From an uncultured Candidatus Saccharibacteria bacterium (GTDB lineage: Bacteria > Patescibacteriota > Saccharimonadia > Saccharimonadales > Saccharimonadaceae): DNA of 50,881 bases. A model generated the notes under the pieces. That model searched no databases and was not told the DNA's origin. It worked only from the letters and a program-made list of their open reading frames with translations. Below, in pieces: positions 4,503-7,148 of this stretch; positions within the stretch are counted from its first letter, which is position 1; every line of letters begins with the position of its first letter. Where the stretch lies: contig CALFGG010000050.1 in assembly GCA_937958235.1 (NCBI GenBank), positions 1 through 50,881 of the forward strand, given 5' to 3'. The position numbers and the translations under genes are program-made.

Positions 4503-6592
4503 TTATTTCTGAGTAAAGTAGCCGGGGTTACCAGGAGCGTCAATATGAGCATAATCACTATTATAATTTGGCCAGACGTAGCTAGTACCATTTCCACCGA
4601 CGACGTTACTAGTATGTTCAAACATTTTCTGAGGAGCAGAACTTAGCCCTGCAACCGTAAAGCTCGGTGAGACTAGAATTGTCTTAACCCCCGAGTCGGT
4701 AAACATAGCCTTGGCTTCAGTCAGACTACGAGTATCAAAGCTGGAAATATCTAGAGTGTCATTACCTGGGTTTTTCATAGTAGAGAGGAACATATCTTTC
4801 ATATTAGTGACCTTTCTTGTATCAAAGGAGGAGATATTTAAATTATTTAGATTAGCTTGACCTTGGAACATAGCCTCCATAGTTGTAACATTGCTTGTAT
4901 TAAAATTCGAGAGATCAAGATTTTGAAGAACCGGCATTGCAGACCAATTAGAGAACATAAATGACATATCAACAACATTATGCGTACGAAAGCTAGAAAC
5001 ATCAAGACTAGACAAGGCGGTCGTTTCCTCAAACATATATTTCATGTGGGTAGCATTTGAAGTGTCGAATTCGCGAAGATCAAGACTTGTTAGGGCATGA
5101 CAATGCGAGAACATAAATTCCATATTCTGCACATTCTTTGTCGTAAAACCTGCGTACTGAAAATTCCTTAGATTAGTAAGACGACCAAACATTGCTGCCA
5201 TGTCAGTGGCGGAATCATTCTGCCAACCAGAAACATTGAGGTCAGTAATTTCCTCACTGTATACAAAAGTACTGTTCATATTAGTAACATTGCGAGTATT
5301 CCACCCAGAAAGATCCAAGGAGGTAACATTTTTCAGTCTGGCAAAAGTAAAGGATAGGTTAGTGACACGGCCGACATCAAAATGGCGAACATCAATATTA
5401 GGAAGATGTGAGCCTTGGAACATTCCCTCCATGTCTCTGACATTACTAGTATCAAAATGTGAAAGATCGATTGGTGATGGACTAACTGTACCAGTATTCG
5501 AATCATCACTACCAAACATATATCTCATATTTTCAACCTGAGAGGTATTGAGATTTCCTATGATTAGATCTTTAACTAATTTCTCTCCACTATGGAACAT
5601 GAATCTCATATCTTTAGCCTTGCTAGTGTCAATTCCGGTTGTATCGATAACAGACACATCATTAGCTCCGCCGTTAAGATCATGAAACATGAAACCAGCA
5701 TTAATGTTTGCGTATGAGACATCTGCGTCACTCCACCAGAGTAGGGTTTTATTTATAGTATCGTACCAGAGATATATTGGCCGATCCGAATCAGGAGTAG
5801 AGACGATTCTTGCTAGGGTTGGGTTAGCAGGAGCAACTGATGAGTGCTTAAACACATTAATATCCTTGGTTGGTGTAATATCTCGGACTACATCATTAAA
5901 ATCAGGCCCCTCAATAAAAGTGGTAGTGGTTGGGACATAGTTAGAAATCACGGTAAAAACAATTTGTTTTGAATATGTACCAGCAGGGAGATCCGGCCCA
6001 GATTTAACCCCAAAATCAATAAAATGCTTAGTCCCAAATGCAGATTTTTTAGTAAACAAGGCATCTGGAGTACTAGCCTTAGGAACTGGATGGTAATTGC
6101 CGGTTGGCAAGATAGCAGCGGCACGATAGCCCCAGGTCTTAGAACTAAACGCGGTATCCGCTAGAGGAGTAGTGATCGAAGGGATTTTTTGAAGAACTGA
6201 GGGGTCGGAGTGATTGAGATTTGTATCCTCATCAATACTAGAGATATAAGCAGTAGCGCCAGTAGAATTATTCGTGTAAACATCGATTAGGAAGGAACCA
6301 TGTTTAAAGGTTGAAGAGGTAAGCTCAGTTTGAGTAAAATTAAAGTCCACTGAGGGATCACTAGAAACAGTAATGATGGGAGAGGTAGATGGCGCCCCGG
6401 GAGCGGCAAAAGTATTATACTGGGAAGTTATCACTAAGAAAGAACCTAGTAAGGTCGTGAATAATGAGAAGATTAAAAATGGAATATAATGAGCACGACA
6501 AGTGAGAATAGACTTTAATGACATGGATTTTTTATTCTGATATAAAGTAGCACCCCCCCCCGATACTGTTTTTTGGTTTTGGATATGAACAT
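4503..6592 (-). CDS. DUF285/BspA-like repeat surface protein; probable true start 6592 is frameshifted by a G9 tract (in-frame ORF 4503-6524)
   Basis: N-terminal hydrophobic segment; about 11 repeats of the LDLSxFDTSNVTxMxxMF type. Upstream ATG 6592 joins the frame if the G tract at 6553-6561 gains one base. Confidence 0.85.
6553..6561 (-). repeat. Poly-G9 homopolymer (candidate contingency tract)
   Basis: C9 on the plus strand; longest G/C run noticed in the window. Confidence 0.9.
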
Positions 6593-6960: not shown

Positions 6961-6987
6961 AAAAATACACCTAAGCGGTGTATTTTT
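6961..6987 (-). terminator. Intrinsic terminator of the candidate sRNA
   Basis: AAAAATACACC-GCTTA-GGTGTATTTTT. Confidence 0.8.
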
Positions 6988-7114
6988 GATTACCTCGTAA
7001 TTTTGGGCAGAATTTATTCTTTTCTGGAATGCCTGCAAGATACAAGCAATCTAGCCAAATTACTTCACACTCCACCCTTTGAACTTCGGCGTCTCTCAAC
7101 TTCGCCCAAGTTCT
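6961..7114 (-). ncRNA. Candidate structured small RNA, family unassigned
   Basis: Own promoter and terminator, no ORF, several stems whose G-U pairs work only on the minus strand. Confidence 0.55.
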
Positions 7115-7120
7115 ATATAT

Positions 7121-7148
7121 AGTTTAGCATGAGTGGATTATTCGTCAA
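7121..7148 (-). promoter_or_regulatory. Sigma70-type promoter of the candidate sRNA
   Basis: TTGACG-N16-TAAACT with an extended -10 TG. Confidence 0.6.

Follow-up and report, generated by a model that had tools for sequence, protein, structure and literature searches.

A predicted stand-alone small RNA gene with a covarying 5' hairpin, and its family, in one genus of Candidatus Saccharibacteria

What does the minus strand encode between the hisS gene and a transfer RNA (tRNA) gene for cysteine in a Candidatus Saccharibacteria genome? The question concerns positions 7148-6961 of contig CALFGG010000050.1, whose whole stretch of 50,881 nucleotides (nt) is called the window, where a preliminary description made from the letters alone had proposed a structured RNA: either a reduced 6S-like RNA or an undescribed non-coding RNA. 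As judged from sequence comparison, the second reading holds: the locus is a previously uncatalogued gene for a small non-coding RNA, and its family is new within a known kind, the stand-alone small RNAs of bacteria. The predicted transcript is about 154 nt long and runs from about 7114 to 6961 on the minus strand, to which all coordinates below refer; its start is placed 7 nt past the -10 box and its end at the T-run of a terminator. The Saccharibacteria (TM7) live as ultra-small epibionts, many in the human mouth, and have reduced genomes. The window's own genome (G000) is 0.79 Mb in 95 contigs, 89.7% complete, with 40.3% G+C. Its closest hisS loci in public genomes are those of Candidatus Saccharibacteria, Candidatus Nanosyncoccus nanoralicus and TM7 G3 HMT-351.

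The predicted 5' hairpin, P1, is established by compensatory change. It spans 33 nt (7113-7081) and consists of GAACUU-G-GGCG, a loop and CGCC-G-AAGUUC. R1, a 38-position covariance model of P1 from 11 sequences, matches the window at 7115-7078 with 56.2 bits. In alignment A2 (MAFFT, 16 distinct sequences), 91.5% of the P1 cells are paired, against 25.6-45.5% when the partner strand is slid, and six of the 11 pairs are changed on both sides. Alignment A4 (34 distinct sequences), which is model-fitted and thus biased towards the model's structure, gives 90.6% paired against 23.8-50.5% slid, with double-sided changes at nine of the 11 pairs and a covariation score that none of 500 shuffles reaches. 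In 19 of the 34 sequences one P1 position does not pair, through an A.C mismatch or otherwise. RNAalifold predicted no pairs on a MAFFT alignment of 22 full-length members because P1 loops of differing size were misaligned, and model-based alignments were used instead. The loop has 11 nt, or more through an insert such as AUCUGAC. Its core GUUGAGAG (7100-7093) occupies invariant alignment columns, the invariant 3' part having the family consensus GUUGAGRG; the core includes UUGA, a YUNR-type tetranucleotide.

The family is, as far as searched, confined to one species-rich genus of Candidatus Saccharibacteria. BLAST recovers it in three of 41 genomes including the window's own, and the two relatives keep the invariant loop on stems that differ compensatorily. 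Genomes were searched with Infernal at stricter filters, one genome per species. R1 matches 46 of 150 genomes of the genus, and R2, rebuilt from 36 matches, finds exactly one match in each of 83 of the 150 (E <= 0.05); among genus genomes at least 90% complete, the R2 count is 55 of 100. Across the order, R2 matches two of 150 genomes, both of this genus, and therefore none of 148 genomes from 118 other genera. It also finds nothing in 39 other genera of the same taxonomic family, and R3, a model of the downstream domain 2, finds nothing in 38 other genera. Within the window's own genome no paralogue was found, so that the gene is single-copy there; R3 misses the divergent domain 2 of this genome and gives a weak match elsewhere instead (contig C66, E = 0.019). 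In L075, a more distant relative, synteny reveals no such RNA after hisS.

Membership was checked at the margins. Inspection of 16 weak R1 matches found 14 genuine and two false (L120, L121). A search for the loop pattern with up to two mismatches hit 77 of 201 genomes, a figure that includes unrelated sites, the reversed control pattern also matching often; in later sets, pattern matches were kept only with TTGAC within 70 nt upstream. Six loci (L011, L013, L023, L026, L040 and L059) were dropped as lacking this box. The same requirement removed three more (L033, L039, L060), where a different element lies, a long inverted repeat of about 100 nt (AAAUUCGAAGUUGAAAGGCGCC ... GGCGCCUUUCAAUUCGAAUUU) adjoining an opposite-strand tRNA gene; it shares part of the loop motif by sequence and has no family-type promoter.

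Comparison of the 13 hisS-linked loci of the window's clade shows that the predicted RNA evolves far more slowly than neighbouring hisS. Its first 69 nt are identical at 69 of 69 positions in 12 of these loci and at 67 of 69 in the remaining one, while hisS is only 75.6-92.6% identical at the DNA level. Of the spacer upstream, 26-39% aligns in seven of eight more distant loci. Eleven variants within the clade are identical both in the first 69 nt and in UUCU-R-CCCAAAAUUAC, the 34 nt between being hypervariable. Because 69 nt are letter-perfect while the adjacent hisS diverges by a quarter, the RNA is a candidate for an important regulator or particle.

The gene also looks independently transcribed. 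A -35 box TTGACG (7148-7143), a 16-nt spacer and an extended -10 box TGcTAAACT (7129-7121, with TAAACT at 7126-7121) were returned by a consensus scan, as was the intrinsic terminator AAAAAUACACC-GCUUA-GGUGUAUUUUU (6987-6961; 11 pairs, a loop of five and a T-run). Both signals agree with those first proposed, and the promoter keeps its position in relatives. The region holds nine promoter-like sites against 3.8 +/- 1.9 in shuffles, and two terminators against 0.8; since shuffles also give promoter-like sites, the promoter match alone is weak evidence, and it is conservation in relatives that counts. There the extended -10 reads TGnTAAAAT, and TTGAC-N16/17-TGnTAAAAT stands at the matching upstream distance in all 36 further family members inspected, which were drawn from the weaker R2 matches. 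The downstream sequence of the same 36 was read by eye as a terminator, and a script found a terminator hairpin with T-run in 58 of 72 members. The order of elements on the minus strand is promoter, P1, a purine-rich stretch from AAAGGGUGGAGUGUGAAGUAAUUUGG, a variable hairpin, AUUCUGCCCAAAAUUAC, a five-pair mini-hairpin and the terminator.

Could the transcript encode a small protein? The preliminary description had noted no open reading frame (ORF). Two mechanical minus-strand ORFs do exist, of 42 (7099-6971) and 33 amino acids; what stands is that no reading frame is conserved. That the 42-residue, cysteine-containing ORF present in this genome is a genuine small-protein gene is hardly credible: it begins with a TTG inside the P1 loop, its frame in 10 close relatives varies from 24 to 47 residues with a frameshift and radical changes, and the longest sense ORF across 72 family members measures 4-43 residues. 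Because this frame is not kept in relatives, the RNA is considered non-coding. Mini-ORFs following the G-box, a conserved purine box downstream of P1, were read by eye and rejected as not conserved.

How is the RNA folded? The whole minus-strand RNA reaches -51.2 kcal/mol (z -4.87), and the body without terminator -38.7 kcal/mol (z -4.02); in neither case does any of 200 shuffles fold as well. For the plus strand, z is -3.32 (whole) and -2.39 (without terminator). Because the minus-strand scores are the stronger, the strand asymmetry is real. The minimum free energy (MFE) structure, at the -51.2 kcal/mol just given, comprises P1, a rod closed by GGGUGGAGU/AUUCUGCCC with an apical UGCUUGUA/UGCAGGCA, the mini-hairpin and the terminator. 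Every helix named in the preliminary description is present as canonical or G-U pairs; the two folds assembled from them fare differently. Fold A, a 5' hairpin followed by a three-way junction, keeps the hairpin, which is P1 and covaries, and loses the junction-closing helix GUAAUUUGG/CCAAAAUUAC, which is clade-specific and, when forced, gives -44.6 kcal/mol, 6.6 above the MFE. Fold B, a rod, is disfavoured: forced, it gives -37.7 kcal/mol, 13.5 above the MFE, and it consumes the 5' strand of the covarying P1, with which it is incompatible. In the ensemble for this genome, the MFE closing helix has a probability of about 1.0, and the Fold A junction helix and Fold B about 0.

Downstream of P1 lies domain 2. 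The segment 7077-7047 holds the G-box GGGUGG (7077-7072) and the 5' strand of this domain, GGGUGGAGUGUGAAGUAAUUUGGCUAGAUUG, a conserved stretch identical in 12 of the 13 related loci. The G-box, as GGUGG or GGGUG, is conserved throughout the RNA family. In the MFE structure of G000, domain 2 forms a rod that a 9x9 internal loop interrupts and that is capped by the hairpin UGCUUGUA / UCU / UGCAGGCA (7048-7030). This apical segment is hypervariable in the clade alignment, and the hairpin is kept with other sequences in the relatives that were folded (by eye, uncounted). The 3' strand of the closing helix, AUUCUGCCC (7013-7005), contains the anti-G-box CUGCCC (7010-7005) and pairs with a probability of about 1.0. 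It overlaps the conserved 3' box CCCAAAAUUAC (7007-6997; family consensus CCUAGAAAUUA), a possible alternative partner of GUAAUUUGG (7063-7055).

Two classes of domain 2 occur. Class I (43 sequences by a motif rule, including G000) consists of xGGUGG, a GAGUGUAGAGUUAUUUUGGCUA-like stretch, a variable segment, CCACCU, AGAAAUU and the terminator. In class II, the G-box sits in the loop of a hairpin, AGCAC-[YGGGUGNUUNAAAU]-GUGCU, and there is no CCACCU. An anchor-based count finds 236 of 258 G-box/CCACCU cells paired, the two strands lying 4 to 75 nt apart; the G000 row is mis-anchored in this count, its correct partner CUGCCC pairing at six of six positions. In a model-fitted alignment (28 distinct sequences), 98.2% of the cells are paired against 33.7-63.4% slid. 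The CCACCU strand changes almost solely by transitions that preserve G-U or U-G pairs. Folded in isolation in 37 members, domain 2 averages z -1.93, with 16 values below -2, and its MFE structure is closed by the G-box/CCACCU helix in most. It may shrink to 16 nt or give way to another hairpin, and the shortest family members have a total length of 87-100 nt. At the other extreme, L141 (G114:C11) has about 200 nt between P1 (1229-1274) and its domain 2 match (1478-1534), either an insertion or an unusually long variant.

The helices GGGUGG:CYRCCY and GUAAUUUGG:CCAAAAUUAC exclude each other, and a conformational switch between the two is possible in G000. Strong forms of the second are confined to the G000 clade and, as GUUUCUAG/CUAGAAAC, to "type C" members (read by eye, uncounted). 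Two mutually exclusive helices are what a cis-acting leader or attenuator would need, alternating between GGGUGGAGU/AUUCUGCCC and GUAAUUUGG/CCAAAAUUAC to control read-through into tRNA-Cys(GCA) (6930-6857), which follows on the same strand here and in many members. Such a leader is nevertheless very unlikely. The terminator is present in all the folds and is left untouched by both alternative helices, and the alternative helix is not conserved family-wide (read by eye). Moreover, tRNA-Cys has its own extended -10, TGCTAAAAT at 6947-6939, read directly from the sequence and as the preliminary description had it. Across the family the next gene varies, having a -10 of its own or lying in convergent orientation, and in many members it is convergent or unrelated. 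This variation disfavours cis control.

Does the RNA belong to a described class? Rfam gives no match on the locus, at gathering thresholds or at E <= 10, and on 20 diverse members nothing at E <= 1 other than tRNAs. The suggestion of an undescribed RNA is thereby upheld, the family being conserved, single-copy and apparently independently transcribed, with the homologues and P1 covariation described above. The 6S-like alternative, an open-promoter mimic binding RNA polymerase holoenzyme, has some resemblance on its side. Like 6S RNA (RF00013), the gene is single-copy, strongly promoted and, to judge by its sequence, perhaps abundant; domain 2 of G000 is an interrupted rod with its 9x9 loop; and RF00013 detects no 6S RNA anywhere in this genome. 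Unlike 6S RNA, however, it has no 5'-3' closing stem, since P1 is a local, covarying 5' hairpin, and no conserved central bubble: in members such as L115 and L108 domain 2 is only a 6-bp hairpin with a tetraloop, and members go down to 87 nt. No 6S match was obtained on 21 members. The 6S-like proposal therefore finds no support and is very improbable.

The earlier statement that no SRP RNA, RNase P RNA or transfer-messenger RNA (tmRNA) core is recognisable also holds: tmRNA and RNase P RNA lie on contig C92, and the signal recognition particle (SRP) RNA is unmatched. Like the bacterial small SRP RNA (RF00169), the RNA has a similar size and a stable-RNA-like gene near tRNAs; unlike it, it has no covariance model match or domain IV motifs. 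An SRP RNA identity was rejected, RF00169 being absent from G000, from all 41 genus genomes and from all 41 order genomes searched. The protein partners point the same way. The Ffh M domain (PF02978) is found in none of the 41 related genomes. PF00448, the SRP54 GTPase domain of Ffh and FtsY, is not found in G000 and gives mostly weak, P-loop-like matches in 31 genomes; two of these reach the cut-off, one borderline and one strong, the strong match lying at a contig end in a genome 76% complete with 3% contamination. Depending on the model, the SRP searches recovered their positive controls in 12 to 14 of 14 genomes. The SRP pathway thus seems, as far as these genome sequences indicate, to be missing from this lineage.

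A T-box leader (RF00230) was also rejected. The sequence core of T-boxes resembles GGGUGG, and the locus lies beside hisS and tRNA genes as such a leader might. Unlike a T-box, its GGGUGG pairs with CCACCU and forms no antiterminator bulge, there is no covariance model match at E <= 10, and the gene stands 3' of hisS with no regulated ORF downstream. Likewise rejected were an Hfq- or ProQ-dependent small RNA and a CsrB-type sponge, since Hfq, CsrA and ProQ were each found in none of five genomes, four of them 99% complete.

What, then, might the RNA do? A trans-acting RNA that works without Hfq, ProQ or CsrA through its exposed P1 loop is tentatively favoured, as a reading well short of an even chance. 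The P1 loop, with its UUGA U-turn-type motif followed by GAGAG, would be the exposed recognition element and would nucleate pairing with a pyrimidine-rich, CUCUCAA-like target. The G-box may provide a further point of contact, which in class I members its internal complement would mask. YUNR motifs form U-turns; in antisense RNAs and anticodon loops these expose the next bases and thereby speed up pairing. Four findings speak weakly for such a mechanism: the sole family-wide invariant stretches are purine boxes that are unpaired or maskable; the narrow taxonomic range is typical of regulatory small RNAs; the missing Hfq, CsrA and ProQ suit chaperone-independent action; and the varied downstream genes speak against cis control. 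The nearest known systems are the Hfq-independent loop-seed small RNAs of Firmicutes (RsaE/RoxS-type) and the YUNR antisense RNAs (CopA- and Sok-type). As in these, the gene has its own promoter and intrinsic terminator, a length of 90-170 nt, a narrow range and a genome without Hfq, and conservation is highest in a hairpin loop close to the 5' end. It differs from them in the 69-nt conservation and has no sequence or Rfam relationship to them; its loops are purine-rich, not C-rich, and for that reason pairing with Shine-Dalgarno sequences is not expected. Mimicry of Shine-Dalgarno or anti-Shine-Dalgarno sequences was rejected: GGAGGUG and UAGAAA complement the genus 16S tail GGAUUACCUCCUUUCUAG in some members, not in G000 and many others.

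Several results weigh against this account as a whole, from gene to mechanism. No RNA sequencing run with the locus was found, and the three runs with related sequence are contigs, probably of DNA. In the 0.79-Mb genome the loop complement CTCTCAAC is found at 19 sites, where about 24 are estimated by chance, and only one of the 19 is near a start codon; neither CTCTCAAC nor its 7-mers occur in the 16S ribosomal RNA and downstream stretch of one relative. Duplexes of the conserved boxes with the 32 tRNA and tmRNA sequences of G000 (ARAGORN) are no better than those of shuffled boxes. R2 has no match in 67 of the 150 genus genomes, where the RNA may be missing or more divergent. For the G-box/CCACCU helix, double-sided changes occur at none of the six pairs, and a paired percentage as high as its own is seen in 409 of 500 shuffles; because double-sided changes are absent, this helix is conserved complementarity and not proven by covariation. 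Finally, a perfect identity of 69 nt exceeds the needs of a seed and fits an RNA-protein particle as well.

A stable housekeeping-type RNA is weighed beside it. Its P1 loop and G-box helix would be recognised by their sequence, be it by a conserved protein, the ribosome or RNA polymerase, and the RNA would act as scaffold or sequester its partner. This ribonucleoprotein or decoy reading is a close rival, only slightly less likely than the trans-acting one. It would suit a gene that is single-copy per genome, lies among tRNA genes in most family loci and has a near-consensus -35 with an extended -10. The 69/69 identity beside a hisS of 76-93% and the hypervariable region between conserved parts are equally in keeping with it, and G-box helix strands that are conserved in sequence without covarying fit sequence-specific recognition of a helix. 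A range of one genus, however, is unusual for a housekeeping particle, and domain 2 shrinks to 16 nt or is replaced. The candidate RNA-binding proteins CsrA, Hfq and ProQ are those missing from the five genomes above, and no co-located RNA-binding protein gene is seen, the recurrent neighbours being a CPTCG membrane protein, a DsbA-like thioredoxin, hisS and tRNAs. A more specific form, in which the RNA is subunit or decoy of a conserved particle of this genus and its GUUGAGRG loop and G-box dock on tRNA, the ribosome or RNA polymerase, is improbable. If it were true, these ultra-small epibionts, in which the searches detected no SRP pathway, would possess a stable housekeeping-type RNA of a new class.

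The constant neighbourhood of tRNA genes (in G000, tRNA-Cys and tRNA-Leu) raises a further question: does the RNA interact with tRNA? T-loop-like pentads are present in its loops (UGAGA in P1; UUCAA, UUGAA and UUUAA in class II) and might dock on tRNA, and the UGGU or UGGA of some G-boxes might base-pair with NCCA ends. Both the T-loop consensus and docking by a double T-loop motif are familiar from T-box stem I and RNase P; unlike such interdigitated modules, the putative T-loops here lie in separate hairpins. G-boxes such as GGGUGUUU and GGGUGAAAG have no UGGN, and neither a T-box nor any other Rfam family matches the locus or the 20 members searched. As for energies, the best duplex, P1 with tRNA-Gly, reaches -22.1 kcal/mol, against -18.3 +/- 2.0 for shuffled boxes with a minimum of -23.5. 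A tRNA-interacting RNA is thus quite unlikely. The tRNA-Gly(GCC) in question (4422-4346) has an unusual T-loop, UUAGAGU, in which A replaces the customary C56. Its 3' half can form 14 pairs with P1, two of them G-U, around one bulge; the energy of this duplex is no better than for shuffled boxes.

The family is ready-made for Rfam, three models and over 70 sequences having been built. Cultured Saccharibacteria can now be manipulated with genetic tools, and given such tools deletion of the small RNA gene and the search for its partners look feasible. No description of Saccharibacteria small RNAs was found in the literature listings searched or in passages of two papers. In one of these (PMC10768705), SRP genes with APY09_ locus tags appear in a passage on the host strain XH001 and are taken as host genes; the passages of the other (PMC7160235) are unrelated to TM7 RNAs.

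The surroundings of the gene vary across the family. In the window, hisS (8910-7612) lies upstream, and tRNA-Cys is followed by tRNA-Leu (6789-6705). The AT-rich spacer from hisS to the promoter contains, at 7285-7236, a short motif, AAACCGAA(C), repeated about five times. The divergent upstream gene codes in 45 of 72 family loci for a membrane protein that carries a CPTCG motif and matches no Pfam family, and in 41 of the 72 a DsbA-like thioredoxin gene stands beside it; in G000, hisS takes the place of the CPTCG gene.

A 14-nt same-sense copy of the loop motif, CGAAGUUGAGAGAC, occurs in the rpsL leader of G000 (contig C54, about 6008-6021) and is probably a chance match. It is absent from 22 other rpsL leaders, among them the leader of the closest relative, G018, which has a small RNA 90% identical. 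The leader itself (C54, about 5900-6072, in G000, designated L173; L172-L201 over the set) is a candidate ribosomal-protein leader: in all 23 upstream regions of rpsL (S12), a TATAAT box is followed directly by a conserved AGAGUUUC, a variable stem and UUGCUG.

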